This document shows positions 4,671 through 40,516 of a stretch of 64,000 bases of DNA, one piece after another. The stretch lies in assembly GCA_964402695.1 (NCBI GenBank), contig CAYODK010000004.1:7676-71675 (forward strand). Direction: 5' to 3'. The notes under the pieces are model-generated. The model searched no databases, was not told the DNA's origin, and was given only the letters and a program-made list of their open reading frames with translations. The first letter of the stretch is position 1. Each line of letters starts with the position of its first letter. This DNA is from an uncultured Verrucomicrobiota bacterium (GTDB lineage: Bacteria > Verrucomicrobiota > Kiritimatiellia > PWTM01). The translations under genes and the position numbers were made by a program.

Positions 4671-4975
4671 TGGAGGGCCGAGCTACGCGAGGCCGGGAGA
4701 GATGATTCTCCGCGGGCGTGGCGTTCGGGCTCGCGGTAGCTCGCCCCTCCAACACGCGACGATCGGACGTGCGTTCCGGCCGGCCTTCGTAGAAGCGGCG
4801 CCCTCGCCGCTTCCTTCGGGGATCCCCCTGCACGCGGCGGGGGCGCCGCGTCTACGGCATTCCGCCGTTGGATGTTCGATGTTGGGTGTTGGTTGTTGGA
4901 TGTTGCTCCTGGCCTTCGCGTCCTTTGCGTCTTTGTGTCGTCCCTCCTTAGGGGCAGACAGAGTGTCTGCCCCAC
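4630..4975. repeat. Mosaic intergenic repeat nest (BIME-like): inverted heptamer tracts, two inverted REP doublets and a family A REP
   Basis: CAANNNN x5 at 4630-4667 versus TTGNNNN x5 at 4868-4905; TGGAGGG-type REP pair at 4671-4695 and 4727-4751; GTAG-type pair at 4789-4813 and 4832-4855; GGGGCAGACAGAGTGTCTGCCCCAC at 4951-4975. Confidence 0.8.
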
Positions 4976-10367: not shown

Positions 10368-11648
10368 TCACGCCCCGCGGACCTCCTCGCGGTAGTCCGA
10401 GGGCCAGCGGCCGGCGTGGTGGTGAAAGGCGCGGCTGAAGGACGCCGCCGTGGCGTATCCACAGGCGCGGGCAATGTCGGCGATACGGTGCGCGCGATCG
10501 GCGAGCAGGGAACGCGCGGTCTGCATCCGCACGCGGACCAGTTCCTCGCGGACGGTGCGGCCGAGTGCGCGTTCGAAGCGGCGGTCGAGCGTGCGGCGCG
10601 AGACGCCGAGCCCCTGCGCGATCTGCTCCGAGCCGACCAGGTCGCCTGCCTGCTCGCGGACCCTCTGGACGGCCGACCGCACAAGGTCGTCATCGACGGC
10701 GACCGTGTCGGTCGAACCGCGCGCGGCGATGCCGACGGGCTCGATCCTCACGTGCGGCGTCGCGATGCGGCGTCCCGCCATCGCGGCGTCGAGCATCCGT
10801 GCGGCCTCGAAGCCGATGCGCGGGGTGGGGAGCCGCACGCTGGAGAGTGTCGGCCAGCTCACCTCGCACATCAGTTCATCGTCGCCGATCCCGAGCACGG
10901 CGACCTGCTGCGGCACCGCGATCCTGGCCCAGCGGCACGCGGTGAGCACGCGTTCCCCGAGCTTGTCGTCGAAGACCAGGAGTCCGACGGGTTTCGGGAG
11001 CCCCCGCAGCCAGCGCATCATCGGGCCGAGGCCCGACTCGCCCTCGGCGACGGGGTCGGCGAAGGCCGGTAGAACTGCGCCCGTGACGCCGTCCGGCCGC
11101 CGTCGGACGACACGGAGGTCGTCCCTCCAGCCCCCGGCGGCCGGGGTCGGTGGCGGGCCGGGCTCCGTCCCGGCCGTTCCGCGCGGCGGACGTGACGGAG
11201 CCAGAGCCGCCAGCGCGGCCGCGAAGCCGGCGCGGCGCTCCTCCGAGGCGGTGCGCCCCGCGACGCCGCAGTAGCCGAAGTGGCGCAGGCCCGCCTGGAC
11301 CAGATGCTCCGCGGCGACCCGGGCGACGGCGGCGTTGTCGATGCTGACGGTCAGGCCGATCGGCTGCTCGCCGCGCGCGGTGTCGACCAGCGGGATCCCC
11401 AGACTCCGGGCGGCGGCGACCAGCCACCGGTCGGCGATGTAGGCCAGGATGCCGTCCGGGCTCAATCGCGCGACCTCGCCCGCGGCGCCCTGTCCGCCCC
11501 GCCGGACCAGCATCATCCGCCAGCCGTGGCGGCGGACGTACTGCGCGACGCCGTGCAGGCGGTTGCGCCCGGCGCCGTCGCGGGTGTCGATGCATACGGC
11601 GACCGATCGGGTACGCGGGACGGCTGGTTTCACGCGGCGATGATGCAT
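10368..11648 (-). CDS. XylR-type transcriptional regulator (periplasmic-binding-protein-like domain plus AraC HTH) carrying an internal REP-derived insertion
   Basis: LPKPVGLLVFDD, VPQQVAVLGIGDD, TLSSV, ARGSTD and C-terminal IADIARACGYATAASFSRAF; start is 11648 (ATG) or 11633 (GTG). Confidence 0.9.
   Translation of the reverse strand: MHHRRVKPAVPRTRSVAVCIDTRDGAGRNRLHGVAQYVRRHGWRMMLVRRGGQGAAGEVARLSPDGILAYIADRWLVAAARSLGIPLVDTARGEQPIGLTVSIDNAAVARVAAEHLVQAGLRHFGYCGVAGRTASEERRAGFAAALAALAPSRPPRGTAGTEPGPPPTPAAGGWRDDLRVVRRRPDGVTGAVLPAFADPVAEGESGLGPMMRWLRGLPKPVGLLVFDDKLGERVLTACRWARIAVPQQVAVLGIGDDELMCEVSWPTLSSVRLPTPRIGFEAARMLDAAMAGRRIATPHVRIEPVGIAARGSTDTVAVDDDLVRSAVQRVREQAGDLVGSEQIAQGLGVSRRTLDRRFERALGRTVREELVRVRMQTARSLLADRAHRIADIARACGYATAASFSRAFHHHAGRWPSDYREEVRGA
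11105..11175. repeat. Divergent REP doublet (TGGAGGG family) inside the XylR CDS
   Basis: GGACGACACGGAGGTCGTCCCTCCA (reverse copy, 11105-11129) and TGGCGGGCCGGGCTCCGTCCCGGCC (11151-11175), both with the loop CTCCGT. Confidence 0.75.
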
Positions 11649-11681
11649 GACCAAAACAGGTATGCCAATGACGAAACAAGG
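11648..11681. promoter_or_regulatory. Candidate AraC/XylR tandem operator in the divergent promoter
   Basis: TGACCAAAACAGG (11648-11660) and TGACGAAACAAGG (11669-11681) are direct repeats with a 21-bp period. Confidence 0.55.
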
Positions 11682-11740
11682 CAATTGCCCCGGGCGGCGG
11701 ACCGGCCTAGCCTGACGGGAAAACCGTGGGGGAGACGCCG

Positions 11741-12514: not shown

Positions 12515-13965
12515 GCGCGGACGCCCAGGACGACGCCCGGGTCTGCTGTAGCCGCGACGGGTCGTCGCGGCCGGTACGCGCCCCGGAGCCCGCATCGGCC
12601 GCGACCGCCGGTCGCGGCTACAGCGACACATCCACGGGTACGGTCTTCTGTAGCCGCGACGGGTCGTCGCGGCGGGCGGACGCCCCGGAGCCGACCCGTC
12701 CGGGCTACAAGTGGGAGCTGCTCGCGCTGCTCTTTTTCGCGTTCTTCTTCCACCAGGGCGATCGCGCGATCTACGGCGTCGTGCTGCCCGCGATCAAGAC
12801 GGACCTCGGCGTGTCGGACAGCCAGCTCGGCCTCGTCGGCAGCGTGCTCTTCGCGACGCTGGCGCTGATGATGCCGGTTGCCGGCTACGTCGGCGACATC
12901 TGGAACCGCAAGCGGATCATCGTCGGGAGCCTGCTGTTCTGGAGCCTGGCGACGATGCTGACGGGTTTCGCGGGCGGCGTGGGCGGACTGATCGCGTTCC
13001 GCAGCGTTGCGACGGCGGGCGGCGAGTCGTTCTACGCGCCCGCGGCGTACCCGCTGATCGCGGCGCACCACACGCGGACGCGGTCCATCGCGCTGTCCGT
13101 CCACCAGGCCTCGCTCTACATCGGCGTCATGGTCAGCGGGTTCATCGGCGGGTTCATCGCGGACCAGTGGGGCTGGCGGTCCGCCTTCTACGTCTTCGGC
13201 GGCGGGGGCATCGTGCTCGGCCTCGTGCTGGCGGTCCGCCTGCTCGACGCCCCGCCCCCGGCGCGCGCGGAGGGAGGCGGGACCGTCTCCCCGTTGCGGG
13301 CGCTCGGCGTGCTGTTCCGGTCGCCGTCGGCGCTGCTGCTGACGGCCGGCTTCACGGCGATCGTCTTCGTCAACAACGCCTACGTCGTGTGGGCGCCGGT
13401 GTTCCTGAAGGAGCGGTTCGACCTGTCGCTCGCGCAGGCCGGCGGCTACGCGATGTCGTGGCACCACGCGGCCGCTCTCGGGGGCATCCTGCTCGGCGGC
13501 TGGCTGTCGGACCGTCTCGCCGCGGCCCGGCCGGTCTTCCGGCTGCAGCTGATGTCGGGCGCGATGCTGCTCGGCGCGCCGGTGATCGTCCTGCTGGGGC
13601 GGGCGGACGCGATCGCCGCCGCGTGCGCGGCCATGGCGGGCTTCGGCTTCTTCCGCGGGCTCTATGAGGCCAACACCCACGCGGCGCTCTTCGAGGTCAT
13701 CGCGCCGAAGTTCCGCGCCTCGGCGGTCGGGATCATGACGATGCTCGCCTTCCTCGCCGGGTCGGTCTCGCCGTGGCTGCTCGGCCGCATGCGCGAGACC
13801 CACGCCGCCGGACAGGGCCTCGGTCTCGGCTTCTCCGCCCTCGGCGGGGCCTACGTGATCGGCGGCATCGCGGTCCTGTGCGCGGTGCTGTTCACGTTCC
13901 GGAGGGACCGGGTCGAAGAAGAAGGAGAAGTGGAAAACTCCGAACTCCAAGGAAGTGGGAAGTGA
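12511..13965 (+). CDS. MFS transporter (sugar-acid/ACS-like) with a REP-derived N-terminal extension
   Basis: GTG start overlaps the SDR stop (GTGA); QGDRAIYGVVLPAIKTDLG, GDIWNRKR, GESFYAPA and GGWLSDR motifs; about 12 hydrophobic segments. Confidence 0.9.
   Translation: MSADAQDDARVCCSRDGSSRPVRAPEPASAATAGRGYSDTSTGTVFCSRDGSSRRADAPEPTRPGYKWELLALLFFAFFFHQGDRAIYGVVLPAIKTDLGVSDSQLGLVGSVLFATLALMMPVAGYVGDIWNRKRIIVGSLLFWSLATMLTGFAGGVGGLIAFRSVATAGGESFYAPAAYPLIAAHHTRTRSIALSVHQASLYIGVMVSGFIGGFIADQWGWRSAFYVFGGGGIVLGLVLAVRLLDAPPPARAEGGGTVSPLRALGVLFRSPSALLLTAGFTAIVFVNNAYVVWAPVFLKERFDLSLAQAGGYAMSWHHAAALGGILLGGWLSDRLAAARPVFRLQLMSGAMLLGAPVIVLLGRADAIAAACAAMAGFGFFRGLYEANTHAALFEVIAPKFRASAVGIMTMLAFLAGSVSPWLLGRMRETHAAGQGLGLGFSALGGAYVIGGIAVLCAVLFTFRRDRVEEEGEVENSELQGSGK
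12546..12700. repeat. Cluster of three GTAG-type REPs inside the 5' part of the MFS CDS
   Basis: GTAGCCGCGACGGGTCGTCGCGG at 12548-12570 and 12650-12672 (identical); inverted copy CCGCGACCGCCGGTCGCGGCTAC at 12599-12621. Confidence 0.85.
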
Positions 13966-14190
13966 GGAAGAAAGAAGAAGGAAGAAGTCGGCGCATCTCC
14001 GGGTCCGGCTCGCCGCATGGATCGCTCGAACGGCCGGCCCGGTGGTCCGGCCCCACCCACCGACCCCGTGGGATTCGTGGCAGAGCCGGGCCGCTGCCCC
14101 GGCCGAACAGAAGGCCCGTGCGTGCCGCTCCTTCCTTCTTCTTCTCCTTGGTCCTTGTCACTTCCTTGGAGTTTGGAGTTTCTCACTTGC
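13928..14190. mobile_element. MITE-like element with imperfect terminal inverted repeats
   Basis: AAACTCCGAACTCCAAGGAAGTG (13935-13957) versus CACTTCCTTGGAGTTTGGAGTTT (14159-14181), a 22/23 inverted match, extended inward by purine-rich and pyrimidine-rich tracts. Confidence 0.5.
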
Positions 14191-14206: not shown

Positions 14207-15118
14207 ATGACGATCACCTGGCTTGGACAATCCGGCTACTTGCTCGAAGGCGCGGGGGTGCGGATCGCGATCGATCCCTACCTGAGCGACGCCGTGGAGC
14301 GGGCGCAGGGGCTGAAGCGCCTCGTCGCGCCGCCGCTGACCGTCGCACAGCTGGCGCCGGACGTTCTGCTGATCACGCACGACCATCTCGACCACTTCGA
14401 TCCGGACACGGTGCCTGCGGTCATGAGATCGTTCCCGGCCTGCCGCCTCGCCGGCCCGGCCAGCGTCAGGGCGCACGGCGCGCGGATCGGTCTGGCGGAC
14501 GCGCGGCTCGTGGCGCTCGATGCCGGCGGCTCTGCGTGCCTCGGCGGCGTTGAAGTCACCGCCACGCCCGCGCGCCACAGCGATCCCGCCGCGGTCGGCC
14601 TGCTGGTCCGCGCCGACGGCGTCCTCCTCTGGTTCAGCGGCGACACCCTCTACGGTCCGGACCTGGCCGGCGATGTGCTCCGTCTTGCGGGCCGGGCGCC
14701 GGATGCGGCGTTCGTCTGCATGAACGGGCGCCTCGGCAACATGGGGGTCGACGACGCCGTCCGCCTCCTCGCGGAGATGCGGCCGGCCCTCGCCGTGCCG
14801 TCGCATTACGGCATGTTCGCCGAGAACACCGCGGCCCCCGCGCCATTCGCCGCCGCGTGCGCGCGCGCCGGGCTGCGGACCCTGGTTCTGGACCCCGGCA
14901 TGCCCGTCGCCTGCTTCTTGGAGGGCCGAGCTACGCGAGGCCGCGACCCGGTTCCACCGCAGCCGTGGACCGGGCCCGAGTCGGGGCAGACAGGAGTGTC
15001 TGCCCCACAACCGATGCATCGGGTTGCGGGAGGGACGGACTTCGGCGAGCTCAGTCGAGCCGCGGCCCCGCCGCCCGCTGGAGTCGATTCCGCAAGGACG
15101 AAAGGGACGCCCGCATGA
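14207..15118 (+). CDS. MBL-fold metallo-hydrolase (UlaG-like, putative lactonase) with a repeat-derived C-terminal tail
   Basis: ITWLGQSG, IDPYLSD, THDHLDHFD, WFSGDT and PSHYGMF motifs; stop overlaps the next ATG (ATGA). Confidence 0.85.
   Translation: MTITWLGQSGYLLEGAGVRIAIDPYLSDAVERAQGLKRLVAPPLTVAQLAPDVLLITHDHLDHFDPDTVPAVMRSFPACRLAGPASVRAHGARIGLADARLVALDAGGSACLGGVEVTATPARHSDPAAVGLLVRADGVLLWFSGDTLYGPDLAGDVLRLAGRAPDAAFVCMNGRLGNMGVDDAVRLLAEMRPALAVPSHYGMFAENTAAPAPFAAACARAGLRTLVLDPGMPVACFLEGRATRGRDPVPPQPWTGPESGQTGVSAPQPMHRVAGGTDFGELSRAAAPPPAGVDSARTKGTPA
14920..15060. repeat. REP cluster within the 3' end of the MBL hydrolase ORF
   Basis: GGAGGGCCGAGCTACGCGAGGCCG at 14920-14943 (identical to 4672-4695) and GGGGCAGACAGGAGTGTCTGCCCCAC at 14983-15008. 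Confidence 0.85.
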
Positions 15119-16406: not shown

Positions 16407-17870
16407 ATGAAGATCTGGATGGCGATGGCGGTGGCCGCCGGGCTGGCCTGCGCGGCGGGCGCGCAGGTGATTGACGACTCCGACACGCGGGTGCAGACCA
16501 CGCTTGACCCGGGGCTCAAGCGGATCGGGACGCTGCGGCCGAAGGGCGTGCACGAGATCGGCACGTCGCGCTGGACGCTCGGCTGCGAGACAATGGACCG
16601 CGAATACACCGACTACGACGCCTTCAAGGAGTACCTGCCCGCGCTCGGGATCAAGCGGATCCGCCTTCAGGGGGGGTGGGCGCGCACCGAAAAGGACCCC
16701 GGCATCTACGACTTCGCGTGGCTCGACCACATCATCGACGACGCGCGCTCGCGCGGCCTCGAGATCTGGCTGGAGACCAGCTACGGCAACCCGGCCTATC
16801 CGGGCGGCGGCGGGCGGACGCTCTCCGGCGGCTTCCCGACCTCGGCGGAGGGGCTCGCGGCGTGGGACAAGTGGGTCGAGCTGATGGCGACGCGCTACAA
16901 GGGGAAGGTCCGCGACTGGTCCGTCTGGAACGAGCCGGAGTTGCGCAACGCCAACAAGCCGGAGCTGATCTTCGACTTCAACATCCGCACCGCCGAGATC
17001 ATCCGGCGGATCATCCCCGACGCCCGCATCGCGTCGCTCTCCATCTGCGCGCCGAAGAAGGAGATCATCGAGCCGTTCGTCCGGACGCTCGTCGAGCGGA
17101 ACAAGCAGGACCTCTTCACGTGGATCGTCTACCATCATTACGTGAAGAACCCGGACGAGAAGTACGAGGCGGTCGTCGAGGCGCGGGAGTTCGTGCGGAA
17201 GCACATCCCGAACCTGAAGCTGTGGCAGGGCGAGAGCGGCACGCAGTCGGAATGGTGCGGCGCCGGGGCGCTGAGCAAGTACCCGTGGACGGAGCTGACG
17301 CAGGCCAAGTGGAACACCCGCCGCATGCTGGGCGACATCGGCCACGGATCGGACTCGTCGGTCTTCTCCGCCGCCGACCTCGACTACCGCACGACCTCCT
17401 TCCACAATGGCCTCGTCCGCTACGGCCTCATCAAGACCGCCGGCGCGGCGCACGGCTACCGCGTGCTCAAGGTCAAGACGGCCTACTACGCGGTGCAGAA
17501 CGTCGTGTCGGTCTTCAACGACTCGCTCGAGTGGATCCCGGACTTCGCGTGCGACGTGAAGTGCGCGAAGCCGCTGGCGGTCTTCGGCCACCGCGACGTC
17601 GCCAGCGGCCGCCCGGTGGTCGTGTTCTGGGACAAGAGCGGCGTGCCGTCGAACTCGAACGAGACGACGGCTGCGACGCTGACGGTGGCGAAGGGGACGT
17701 TCGCCGAGCCGGTGTGGGTCGACGTGATCACCGGAGGCGTGCACGAGATCCCGGCCGACCGGATCGAGCGCGACGGCGGCGGGGTGGTCTTCAGGGACAT
17801 CCCGGTCTACGATGCGCCGGCGTTCATCGCGGACAAGGCCCTGCTCTCGATCCTGCCGGCGAACCACTGA
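16407..17870 (+). CDS. Secreted clan GH-A glycoside hydrolase (GH39-like)
   Basis: Signal peptide; RIRLQGGW, YDFAWLD, WNEPE (acid/base) and LWQGESG (nucleophile). Confidence 0.75.
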   Translation: MKIWMAMAVAAGLACAAGAQVIDDSDTRVQTTLDPGLKRIGTLRPKGVHEIGTSRWTLGCETMDREYTDYDAFKEYLPALGIKRIRLQGGWARTEKDPGIYDFAWLDHIIDDARSRGLEIWLETSYGNPAYPGGGGRTLSGGFPTSAEGLAAWDKWVELMATRYKGKVRDWSVWNEPELRNANKPELIFDFNIRTAEIIRRIIPDARIASLSICAPKKEIIEPFVRTLVERNKQDLFTWIVYHHYVKNPDEKYEAVVEAREFVRKHIPNLKLWQGESGTQSEWCGAGALSKYPWTELTQAKWNTRRMLGDIGHGSDSSVFSAADLDYRTTSFHNGLVRYGLIKTAGAAHGYRVLKVKTAYYAVQNVVSVFNDSLEWIPDFACDVKCAKPLAVFGHRDVASGRPVVVFWDKSGVPSNSNETTAATLTVAKGTFAEPVWVDVITGGVHEIPADRIERDGGGVVFRDIPVYDAPAFIADKALLSILPANH

Positions 17871-37831: not shown

Positions 37832-40516
37832 ATGAGACGATTCTTGTCCGCACATCTCATCGCAACGCTGTCCGCGGGGCTGATCGCCGCCGCGATGGCG
37901 GGGCACTGGCGGTTCGACGGCGACTTCGCGGGCGGCGCCGCGCCCGCGGGAACGGCCGGGGTGTTCGAGAAGGGGACACGGCCGGAGTTCGACGCCGACA
38001 CGCCGGGGACGTCCATCTGGGACGGATCGACGTTCACCTCCGCGAACCCGACGAACCTGTCCTCGCTGCGGTTCGTCAACGAGAGCCCCGACGGCGCGGG
38101 CAGCCCGGTCGGCGGCGAGGTCGTGGTCGCCGGCGCCGATGCACGGCTCAAGACGCGGGGCCTGACCGTCGAGGCCTTCGTGAAGATGGACCGGCAGTCG
38201 CCGCGCCACGCGCTGATCGCCAGCAAGCGCCGCAACGGGCAGACCGGCGCGAGCTGGTCGCTCTCGATCGATCCGACGGGGTGCCTGCGCGTTCGATTCG
38301 ATACGCAGCCGGGCGCCGACTCGAAGAGCGGCGACGGGTTCAATCAGACGATGGGATCAAGCGGTTCCCTCGCGGACGGCGAATGGCACCATGTGGCGCT
38401 GACTCTCGATCCCGCCACCCTCGGGGCAAGCCTGTATGTCGATTACGTGCGCTGCGGCGGCGGGATCGTGAAGGGATCGCTGGTCTACGACGACGGTCCG
38501 CTCGTGATCGGGCGCGGACTCGACGGCCGGCTCGACGAGGTGCGCCTGGGCGGCGAGCCGCTGCACCCCGAGCAGTTCCTGCGCACGGTACGGTTCTACT
38601 CCGACATGAAGCCGTGCGCCCCGGCGGTCGCGCTGCTCGACACGACGCCGACCCGCGTGCAGAGCGCGCTGACGATCGACTGGCCCCGGATCGGCACCCT
38701 GATCCCCAGGCGTGTCGGCGAGATCGGGACGTCGATGTGGTCGCTCGGATGCGAGACGCTCGACCGCGACCTCGCCGATTGGGACGCCTACAAGGCCTAC
38801 CTCGAGCCGCTCGGCATCCGCCGCATCCGGCTGCAGGGAGGCTGGAACCGCACCGAGAAGCAGAAGGGCGTCTACGACTTCGCATGGCTCGACCGCATCG
38901 TCGACGACGCGCACGCGCGCGGCCTGCAGGTGTGCCTGGAGACGTCCTACAACAACCGCCTCTACGAGCCCGGCGGCGCGACGGGCCCCGGCGGCCGGCT
39001 GCCGGAAGGGGAGGAGACGCTCGCGGCGCGGGACCGGTGGGTCGAGGCGATGGCCCGCCGCTACTCCGCGCGCGGCGTCCGCGAATGGATGATGTACAAC
39101 GAGCCGAACCTCAACAAGAGCAACACGCTCGAGAAGATCGTCGCGAACAACATCCGCACGGCGGAGATCATCCGGCGGGTGGATCCGGAGGCGAGGATCG
39201 GCGCCTTCGTGCTCGCCGGGCTGGCCGTCGAGTCCATCGAGAAGATGCTGGAGATGATCAAGGCGCAGGGGAAGCTCGACCTGTTCCACTGGGCGATCTA
39301 CCACGGCTACAGCGGCAACCCCGACCGGCTCAACGAGCGCATGGCGGAATTCAACGCGATGCTCGGGCGCGTCGCTCCGAAGATCCGGCCGTGGCAGGGC
39401 GAGGCCGGCTGCGCGTCGGAGGAGGTGCAGTACGCACTCTCCGGCATCGACTGGACCGAGTACTCCCATGCGAAGTGGAACGCGCGGCGGATGCTGTGCG
39501 ATCTCGGGCACGGGATCGAGTCGTCGGTTTTCACGATCTCCGACCTGGGCTATCACAAGGACTTCATCTCGCGGTACGGGCTGTTGAAGACCAACCCGGA
39601 CAATTCGATCGTCAAGGTGAAGACCGCCTACTACGTCGTGCAGAACGTCGTCTCGATCTTCAATGACACCCTCGATCGCGCGCCGGACTGCGCCGTGACG
39701 GTCACGGGGACGGGGAAGGCTCTGACGGTCTTCGCGTTCCGCGACCGGGCGAGCGGGTTCGGCGTGGTGACGCTGTGGGACGGCACGGAGATCCCCTCCA
39801 ACGGCTCCGATGTCGAGCGGGTGAAGGTCGCGGTCCGCGGCGGGACCTTCAACCAGCCGGTGTGGGTGGATCTCATCACGGGTCAGGCCCACGGGATCCC
39901 GGCGGAGAAGATGACCACCGCCGGCGGAACCGTCACGTTCACGGATGTGCCGGTCTACGACGGCCCCGCGGCGATCGTCGACCGCAGCCTGCTGTCGCTG
40001 GTGCCGGCGCGGGCGAGGAAGGCCTCCGCGCCGGTGCCGGCCGCTCCGTCCGCGCGCAAGCCGGTGGCCGCCGCTTCGCCGCCGATGGACCGGCACCTGC
40101 TGCCCGGGACGCAGCAGCCGGCGCCGGCGGTGCTGGTGTGCGCGGGGGAGGGCGAGGACGTCGGCGACCTCGCGAAGTGGCTGAACGCGCAGGACGTCCA
40201 TGCCTTCGTTGCGCGCATCGACGGGGCGTCCGCGGTCGATGTCGCCGCCGCGATGCGGGAGATCCGCAGCCATGCGGCCGAGTGGCAGGTGAGGGCCGGG
40301 TCCGTCGGCGTGCTGGCGACCGGCAGCCGCAGCGCGGAGGTCGTGAAGGGGGCGATGGGCGGCGCGGACTTCGCAATGCTGCTGGATGCCGGCGACGCGG
40401 GTGTGGCGACGGCGCTGCCGGAGGCGAAGCGCGGGGCCGTGTTCACGGGTCCGCGGGAGGGGTTCGAGGCCACGCTCGGCGCGTGGCTGGAGCGGTTCAA
40501 GGGGACGGTGTTCTGA
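37832..40516 (+). CDS. Secreted LamG + GH39-like glycoside hydrolase + degenerate alpha/beta-hydrolase fusion
   Basis: LTVEAFVK...DGEWHHVALT...LDEVR (LamG); YNEPN and WQGEAG (GH-A); tail PAPAVLVCAG...AKWLN...MREIRSHAAEW. Confidence 0.75.
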   Translation: MRRFLSAHLIATLSAGLIAAAMAGHWRFDGDFAGGAAPAGTAGVFEKGTRPEFDADTPGTSIWDGSTFTSANPTNLSSLRFVNESPDGAGSPVGGEVVVAGADARLKTRGLTVEAFVKMDRQSPRHALIASKRRNGQTGASWSLSIDPTGCLRVRFDTQPGADSKSGDGFNQTMGSSGSLADGEWHHVALTLDPATLGASLYVDYVRCGGGIVKGSLVYDDGPLVIGRGLDGRLDEVRLGGEPLHPEQFLRTVRFYSDMKPCAPAVALLDTTPTRVQSALTIDWPRIGTLIPRRVGEIGTSMWSLGCETLDRDLADWDAYKAYLEPLGIRRIRLQGGWNRTEKQKGVYDFAWLDRIVDDAHARGLQVCLETSYNNRLYEPGGATGPGGRLPEGEETLAARDRWVEAMARRYSARGVREWMMYNEPNLNKSNTLEKIVANNIRTAEIIRRVDPEARIGAFVLAGLAVESIEKMLEMIKAQGKLDLFHWAIYHGYSGNPDRLNERMAEFNAMLGRVAPKIRPWQGEAGCASEEVQYALSGIDWTEYSHAKWNARRMLCDLGHGIESSVFTISDLGYHKDFISRYGLLKTNPDNSIVKVKTAYYVVQNVVSIFNDTLDRAPDCAVTVTGTGKALTVFAFRDRASGFGVVTLWDGTEIPSNGSDVERVKVAVRGGTFNQPVWVDLITGQAHGIPAEKMTTAGGTVTFTDVPVYDGPAAIVDRSLLSLVPARARKASAPVPAAPSARKPVAAASPPMDRHLLPGTQQPAPAVLVCAGEGEDVGDLAKWLNAQDVHAFVARIDGASAVDVAAAMREIRSHAAEWQVRAGSVGVLATGSRSAEVVKGAMGGADFAMLLDAGDAGVATALPEAKRGAVFTGPREGFEATLGAWLERFKGTVF

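Follow-up and report, generated by a model that had tools for sequence, protein, structure and literature searches.

A head-to-head REP pair inside a XylR-type regulator gene of an uncultured Verrucomicrobiota bacterium, missing from some close orthologues

We analyzed a stretch of 64,000 nucleotides (hereafter, the window) from contig CAYODK010000004.1 of an uncultured Verrucomicrobiota bacterium of the class Kiritimatiellia (assembly GCA_964402695.1), in which the gene of a XylR-type transcriptional regulator contains, within its reading frame, two palindromes with the anatomy of repetitive extragenic palindromic (REP) sequences, here called units X and Y (Table 1). The open reading frame (ORF) spans 10368-11684 on the minus strand and probably starts at the ATG at 11648; residue numbers are counted from the GTG at 11651. 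An earlier note, made from the sequence alone, had placed the pair in the ligand-binding domain and described the frame and the downstream helix-turn-helix (HTH) domain as intact, and both statements agree with our domain searches. Its name XylR holds for the architecture and the fold. Escherichia coli XylR is the top match in the PDB by sequence (4FE7/4FE4, 1.5e-30, with the 4FE7 alignment breaking exactly at the insert) and, as the apo form 4FE4, also the top fold match of the predicted model (7.7e-20 over 425 columns), and the two proteins have in common the succession of a LacI/periplasmic-binding-protein-like effector domain and an AraC-type DNA-binding domain. However, their identity in the fold alignment is only about 20%, residues 164-194 of the E. 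coli protein correspond to 67 amino acids here because of the insert, and the neighbors of the gene, a divergent operon coding for a short-chain dehydrogenase (SDR), a major-facilitator transporter (MFS) and a Lactamase_B protein plus a FAD oxidoreductase downstream, are not those of a xylose operon. No NCBIfam equivalog reached its cut-off when the regulator was searched, and the part of the name that implies xylose remains putative.

Table 1. Coordinates of the regulator gene, its domains, the inserted segment and its palindromes, and the transposase gene of a related genome (window positions unless a locus is named)
Feature	Position	Strand	Remarks
XylR-type transcriptional regulator gene	10368..11648	-	periplasmic-binding-protein fold and C-terminal AraC-type HTH
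HTH_18 AraC-type DNA-binding domain, intact	10386..10622	-	E=2.6e-21, residues 355-433 of the 438-aa ORF
Peripla_BP_3 (effector-binding domain)	10710..11312	-	E=2.6e-31, residues 125-325 of the 438-aa ORF; encloses the insert
Inserted segment, residues 151-193 (APSRPPRGTAGTEPGPPPTPAAGGWRDDLRVVRRRPDGVTGAV)	11073..11201	-	about 43 aa, 81% G+C; exact ends may be off by a few codons
REP unit Y (head TGGAG, stem GGACGAC, loop CTCCGT, stem GTCGTCC)	11105..11129	-	perfect hairpin; encodes WRDDLRVV
Spacer between the two heads, 21 nt	11130..11150	.	encodes part of PPTPAAGG
REP unit X (degenerate head TGGCG, consensus TGGAG; stem GGCCGGG, loop CTCCGT, stem CCCGGCC)	11151..11175	+	perfect hairpin
RAYT (REP-associated tyrosine transposase) gene in Lentisphaerae-labelled genome	L026 1197-2354	-	NF047646

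On the plus strand, unit Y reads GGACGAC-ACGGAG-GTCGTCC (11105-11124) and unit X reads GGCCGGG-CTCCGT-CCCGGCC (11156-11175). Taken each on its own strand, both consist of a head (T)GG[AC]G, a 7-bp stem and a loop of six nucleotides, CTCCGT, and they face each other head to head. The hairpins stand where the earlier note had located them, and both are perfect. Its remark that they share a loop is right with one amendment, namely that the loops are identical only when the units are read on opposite strands, so that the repeat is inverted and not direct. Likewise, the TGGAGGG motif by which the note had grouped them is present in Y (11123-11129, minus strand), but X has TGGCGGG in the window; on the coding strand of the orthologues, the head of X is the consensus CTCCA in three of four lineages and ATCCA in P0001. 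The stems, said to be fully compensated, are indeed perfect, but their differences are those between paralogous members of a family and not compensation within the locus, as the 5' arm of Y is mutated without compensation in three orthologue lineages. The translation proposed for the pair (...GTEPGPPPTPAAGGWRDDLRVVRRR...) was correct; the coding strand across the doublet yields ...GTAGTEPGPPPTPAAGGWRDDLRVVRRR..., in which AGTEPGPP is encoded by the strand opposite to that of unit X.

Hairpins as such are not unusual in the window, which has 84 perfect hairpins of 7 bp, versus 71±10 in Markov simulations, but X and Y are the only ones with an ACGGAG/CTCCGT loop. Their folding energy is unremarkable when compared with shuffled sequences (z = -1.15 and -1.28) and alone would not support the finding. 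A search for second copies of X or Y in the 64 kb of the window, allowing up to three mismatches, matched only the two units themselves, and none was found in about 66 kb of orthologous loci. A repeat search of the whole window together with a low-stringency BLAST of the insert gave internal inverted self-matches and no related copy, and Rfam gave no match for the insert, for ten loci bearing the doublet or for the whole window. We discarded TGGAGGG as a family marker, since its 10 occurrences in the window versus 8.8 expected are attributable to chance, and those at 4671, 4745 and 14919 belong to another repeat, TGGAGGGSCGAGCTAC. We also dropped the idea that the pair arose when the neighboring ancestral sequence coding for APS was duplicated in inverted orientation, within a 68-nt imperfect palindrome (11148-11215), given that the doublet is found elsewhere and that P0004 has X without that flank.

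Among 173 homologues (E<=1e-20), nearly all are 379-382 amino acids long, and the only long ones are the window protein (427 amino acids) and the proteins P0001-P0004 (415-426 amino acids, 79-92% identical). In the alignment, about 42 additional residues stand between the conserved end of the FAAAL helix and the LPAF/EGE strand. The doubling of this loop suspected in the earlier note was correct: the distance from GFAAAL to LPKPVG is 70 amino acids in the window protein versus 28-31 in the insert-free orthologues, whose existence also means that the length is not a shared property of the group. Apart from the window and P0001-P0004, the insert is carried by three lake-metagenome contigs (L128-L130, 91-93% identical), and it is absent from the close relatives P0005-P0007 and from all the more distant homologues. 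Carriers and P0005-P0007 have a common divergent SDR-MFS-Lactamase_B(-MR_MLE) neighborhood and are therefore orthologues, the MR_MLE gene being an addition to the divergent operon in the orthologous loci. Contigs of the sequencing run that contains this sequence in full cover the insert without a break, and since it is present in eight independent assemblies it is not an artifact of assembly. One lake-metagenome contig joins position 11065 to 11209, with the insert missing.

Gene trees built after removal of the insert region showed carriers and noncarriers interleaved. The carrier P0002 groups with the noncarriers P0006 and P0007 (100% bootstrap), and the noncarrier P0005 groups with the carriers P0001, P0004 and the window. 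All carriers are alike in the site, orientation and frame of the insert and in its homologous non-REP flanks (...PP[RH]G[TA]A upstream and GA.L downstream). Between the window and P0002, the 21-nt spacer has diverged by about 33% (7/21, counted by eye), versus 20% for the gene as a whole, and the insertion is therefore as old as the clade. Across the five carriers, 281 alignment columns are identical in amino acid, but only 35% of these have identical codons, which indicates that the gene has been under purifying selection since the insertion. The three empty sites (P0005-P0007) differ from one another, and that of P0005 (ACC GCC GGC GGC CCG) resembles the scar that a deletion between GCCGG repeats of a P0004-like sequence might leave. 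Judging from these alignments, the simplest history would be one gain followed by at least two deletions, the alternative being an exchange of alleles by recombination. In either history the insert was lost or swapped in close relatives and is therefore dispensable.

An AlphaFold model computed from 106 homologues (mean pLDDT [predicted local distance difference test] 89.9, pTM [predicted template-modeling score] 0.85) addresses the question, raised along with the first observation, of whether the segment lies in a surface loop. Residues ~151-193 have mean pLDDT values of 44-59 in blocks of 10 residues (below 50 at 158-174, 182-186 and 188-190), versus about 90 elsewhere, and sit between a helix (134-150) and a strand (196-199) that are both confidently modeled. 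The insert is thus predicted to form a surface loop compatible with the fold, a Pro/Gly/Arg-rich and probably disordered segment of 43 translated residues. By analogy with LacI-family structures, this loop would be at that end of the C-subdomain which is distant from the effector pocket. None of the six frames of the G+C-rich REP cores contains a stop codon, and hence any insertion of a multiple of three bases reads through.

A scan for the exact 20-mer of hairpin X, with one genome per species, found it in more than 119 places among the matches listed. In metagenome-assembled genomes (MAGs) labeled as Lentisphaerae, Verrucomicrobiota/Verrucomicrobiia and Kiritimatiellae, the sequence after X is CTCCA, a spacer and TGGAGGGACGACCTCCGTGTCGTCC, the last being hairpin Y with its TGGAGGG head. 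This X(GGCCGGG)-CTCCA-spacer-TGGAG-Y doublet is present, with spacers of 9-52 nt, in at least 18 non-xylR loci of other genomes of the Planctomycetes-Verrucomicrobia-Chlamydiae (PVC) superphylum, and in 11 of them the Y stem is exactly GGACGAC. The recurrence of an exact 20-mer and an exact 25-mer together in unrelated loci of other genomes is not due to chance. Three doublets whose context was checked by eye (L086, L010 and L046) lie just upstream of an obvious start codon and are therefore extragenic. Stop-free frames through such extragenic doublets were also considered as evidence and put aside, being uninformative in G+C-rich DNA.

The loci were collected by their match to X, not to Y, and they contain at least 14 identical copies of the 24-mer GGAG-GGACGAC-CTCCGT-GTCGTCC, two of them in xylR carriers. 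When units were chosen by head (GGAG) and loop (CTCCGT) with no pairing demanded, 39 of the 46 non-X instances paired at all seven positions, versus none with six or more pairs among 167 controls having any other permutation of the loop. There are at least seven stem versions (GGACGAC, GGACGCC, GGCCGTG, GGCGGAC, GGACGCG, GGCCGCG and GGACGGC), and in an alignment of distinct units five of the seven pairs vary on both sides, with a covariation score of 0.516 versus 0.16 in shuffles (0/500 reach the score). The units form arrays that alternate between head-to-head and tail-to-tail, with up to 8 units in 8 kb (L041, L063 and L084), and several contigs each of Lentisphaerae ADurb.BinA184 and Verrucomicrobiia VER2 bear them. 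The term REP doublet used in the earlier note is thus backed by a structured family with a GGAG head, a 7-bp stem that covaries and a CTCCGT loop, and by the same X-Y pair at other loci. Its members are short stem-loop palindromes, represented in the window by two perfect hairpins, with alternative complementary stems around a conserved loop and a tendency to occur as inverted pairs, here as well as in the other X-Y doublets. In other PVC MAGs they are dispersed, with several copies per genome; in the window and the orthologous loci, X and Y are the sole copies. The anatomy of the doublet is that of REPs, bacterial interspersed mosaic elements (BIMEs) and REPINs (REP doublets forming hairpins). 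What these palindromes lack is a conserved 5' GTAG tetranucleotide. Of 197 hairpins with a C[TG]CCGT loop, 72 have GGAG as their head; X in the window has GGCG, and one copy is headed by GTAG (GTAG-GGACGAC, L063:2968), so that the family is best called a GGAG-tagged relative of the GTAG REPs and not a canonical GTAG REP.

In distant phyla, the identical X hairpin (GGCCGGG-ACGGAG-CCCGGCC) forms part of other repeat families. It carries an ATGAC tail, with a partner palindrome at a distance of about 40 nt, in Rhodopseudomonas, Bradyrhizobium and further alphaproteobacteria (L013, L017, L023, L027-L029, L036 and others), and a GTAG(G/C) head in Planctomycetes and MAGs labeled as Bacillota or Acidobacteriota (L011, L019, L033, L080 and others). 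As for proteins, a word-indexed search with the 43-aa insert peptide returned no candidates, even though P0001 shares the peptide, and an exhaustive HMMER search of representatives gave a single match, P0121, with the low sensitivity to be expected of a 43-aa query. We therefore have no evidence from these searches, which are insensitive for so short a peptide, that the X/Y doublet is often translated in the frame used in the window. P0121 is a predicted "protein" of 150 amino acids from the representative library that consists of REP doublets of a sister subfamily, four in tandem, (VGVEPDPPVSRNWRDDFHVVR)x4, and shows the family contaminating protein databases.

Intragenic REPs have been described in many species and are most numerous in the verrucomicrobium Opitutus terrae, in which dimers encode 20-30 amino acids and one single REP lies within a regulator of the AraC family, Oter_3470 (Di Nocera, De Gregorio & Rocco 2013, PMC3733652). 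The present case is a further example of this known phenomenon of in-frame REPs, already documented in Verrucomicrobia. The GTAG/CGTC REPs of that study resemble ours in being short G+C-rich palindromes with a conserved 5' tag, in having subfamilies with alternative complementary stems, in forming head-to-head or tail-to-tail dimers with spacers of 20-100 nt and in having many units wholly inside ORFs. They differ in the tag, which is GTAG or GTGG versus GGAG here, and in that here orthologues with and without the insert allow its history to be traced. Neither the CTCCGT loop nor the X and Y stems were found in that paper, in its supplements or elsewhere in the literature searched, so that a GGAG-headed, CTCCGT-looped REP family extending over several PVC lineages and linked to a RAYT appears to be undescribed in that literature. 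A precedent from another group is provided by the Rickettsia palindromic elements (RPEs), palindromic repeats inserted in frame in unrelated functional genes, translated and thought to be compatible with the fold (PMC10969869). The traits of an RPE are found here as well, with an empty site in orthologues, a preserved frame and a gene under purifying selection. However, RPEs are about 150 bp long, make up alphaproteobacterial families and are unrelated in sequence, whereas here, in a PVC bacterium, a REP doublet of 71 nt is the core.

The likeness to REPIN/RAYT systems, in which two inverted REPs are separated by a short spacer and a single-copy HUH tyrosine transposase is flanked by REPs (Bertels & Rainey 2011, PMC3116915; Nunvar et al. 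2010, PMC2817692), extends to a close relative. The contig L130/L073, which has a 93%-identical xylR with the insert, belongs to the MAG VGWF01, and another contig of this MAG, L026, codes for a RAYT (92 bits versus the NCBIfam NF047646 cut-off of 80). The RAYT was scored as a composite read through one frameshift, because of which the raw ORF had given no Pfam match. On both sides of it lie GGAG-headed palindromes, GGAG-GGCCGGC-TGCCAC-GCCGGCC and GGAG-GGCGCGG-TGCCAC-CCGCGCC, and one such palindrome interrupts the gene in frame, which makes GGAG-headed palindromes RAYT-associated REPs in this lineage. The differences from those systems are that the window and the other loci fetched revealed no RAYT when searched for it, that the palindromes flanking the RAYT have a TGCCAC loop, and that the mobility of the X/Y doublet is something we infer. 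Besides being flanked by REP doublets with the TGCCAC loop, the RAYT gene of L026 contains an in-frame insertion of a GGAG-headed REP (PPGGPAATPAG), is frameshifted close to the C-terminal Y-motif and has its 3' end partly duplicated in tandem.

The two halves of the doublet have fared differently in the regulator. The core of X (CGGCCGGGACGGAGCCCGGCC, 21 nt) does not vary among the five carrier lineages, and only one perfectly conserved run of the gene is longer. Of the 14 columns of the insert with identical amino acids, 12 keep the same codon, versus the 35% found gene-wide. The 5' arm of Y reads as DD, NN, VD or HG codons without compensation in the other arm, being mutated in P0002, P0003 and P0004, while its loop and 3' arm (CT[CG]CGTGTCGTCCG) are kept. 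With only four or five lineages sampled, the pattern of X would be a better fit to constraint at the nucleotide level or to homogenization than to pure neutrality.

Taking these data together, it is likely that a single insertion placed a REPIN-like doublet in the coding sequence of the XylR-type regulator, in the ancestor of the clade, and that it is now a tolerated and dispensable loop. In such a scenario, the head-to-head pair would have entered the common ancestor of a small clade in the effector-binding domain, at the loop that connects helix 134-150 to strand 196-199, possibly mobilized by a RAYT. It would have been tolerated because the added length is a multiple of three, the cores are free of stops in six frames and the site is a surface loop. 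The regulator would have kept working with the insert as a passenger, which sister lineages would have deleted, or swapped by recombination, at least twice; Y would be decaying in three lineages, and X would have stayed perfect at the nucleotide level. Several observations weigh against this account. A perfectly preserved 21-nt core, with its excess of identical codons, does not fit a purely neutral passenger. The family is headed by GGAG, and the published REP superfamily is defined by GTAG. The palindromes beside the RAYT do not have the CTCCGT loop, and no transposase is tied to the exact X/Y subfamily. Neither the window nor the orthologous loci hold a second copy of X or Y, so that activity or abundance of the element in the window genome is not supported. 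Finally, no exact ends of the insert and no target-site signature could be made out.

The conservation of X raises the question of whether a genuine REP insertion has since been exapted as a nucleic acid element. Unit X would then be an intragenic REP that has been domesticated and whose nucleotides are maintained by selection, and it could act as an mRNA structure tuning the translation or stability of xylR, or as a site bound or cleaved by a RAYT or another REP-binding protein, in either case modulating expression of the regulator. We consider this unlikely, even though the core of X has remained unchanged in five lineages between which up to 20% of the nucleotides of the gene differ, with the adjacent spacer differing by about one-third, in what is the least conserved region of the protein. 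The codon identities in the insert also favor constraint on X, and few other X copies are apparently available in the lineage for gene conversion. But the loss of the whole insert in three close relatives implies that any such function is dispensable, Y has not been maintained, the folding energy is not exceptional, the sample amounts to no more than about four independent lineages, and gene conversion from unseen genomic copies may have produced the same pattern. That the beneficiary is the peptide, with a role of the REP-encoded loop in oligomerization, partner binding or tuning of the response to the effector, is very unlikely. AGTEPGP and LRVVR are conserved at the amino acid level in all five carrier lineages, but this conservation reaches synonymous sites, as expected for a nucleic acid and not for a peptide, and the rest of the insert is highly variable. 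In addition, the segment is modeled as disordered, the insert is absent in nested relatives and its presumed position would place it at a distance from the effector pocket.

The doublet could also have had a different history, entering the same site several times, as at a hot spot, or spreading between lineages by recombination. Such a history would account for the interleaving of carrier and noncarrier alleles in the tree, for the differences among the three empty sites and for the lake-metagenome contig without the insert, but we regard it as rather improbable because the carriers agree in site, orientation, frame and homologous flanks, the divergence of the spacer fits the age of the lineage and the P0005 site, as we read its sequence, looks like the product of a deletion. 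It is hardly conceivable that there is no repeat element at all, only chance hairpins in a G+C-rich, low-complexity loop grown by slippage or an assembly artifact. The abundance of perfect 7-bp hairpins in the window, their ordinary folding energy and the lack of a second copy there would agree with such an origin, but we discarded it on account of the recurrence of X and Y together in at least 18 unrelated loci and the covariation of the family stems, to which the presence of the insert in eight independent assemblies can be added.

The insert explains the anomaly of 45 residues in the length of the proteins of this regulator clade. With filled, decaying and emptied sites among close orthologues, the clade is a natural experiment on selfish palindromic DNA turning into protein, and the series of inserts lets the rate at which a REP-encoded loop is tolerated, eroded or deleted be measured. 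The peptide signatures AGTEPGPP, WRDDLRVV, GRDGARPS and MEGRPPCR mark this repeat family in predicted PVC proteins. Only the perfect nucleotide conservation of X could open the way to something new: if X were domesticated, its coding strand would carry two overlapping kinds of information.

Several canonical GTAG/GTGG-headed REPs are also present in the window. The gap between the SDR and MFS genes (12545-12691) is filled by three REPs with a GTAG head (GTAG-CCGCGAC[GC]-loop-GTCGCGG), which alternate in orientation; in the orthologous loci L001, L002 and L005 the two genes overlap with no gap. More perfect palindromes headed by GTAG or GTGG, of at least three other stem families, are found at 4789/4855, 4975, 15008 and 19890/19914. 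The window genome has several REP families, as reported for O. terrae (PMC3733652). Another repeat with a TGGAGGG head (TGGAGGG[CG]CGAGCTAC...) makes up a long imperfect palindrome at 4671-4751 and is also found at 14919-14943 of the window, at 6988-7111 of L001 and at 8154-8169 of L002. Its single copy at 14919 is in frame with the 3' end of the Lactamase_B gene, whose ORF has 303 amino acids versus 247-253 in the orthologues, and from the sequence this repeat appears to have extended the C terminus of the protein. Between the MFS and Lactamase_B genes, there is a G+C-poor, purine-rich segment (GAAGAAGAAGGAGAAG..., 13905-14190) with 35-nt inverted repeats at 13928-13962 and 14154-14188, which looks like a MITE (a miniature transposable element with inverted repeats) or a long hairpin; L005, in which these two genes adjoin, does not have it. 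A direct repeat of 300 nt with 72% identity, its copies 22 kb apart (16521-16820 and 38687-38986; also 17467-17548 and 39612-39693), probably corresponds to two paralogous genes.

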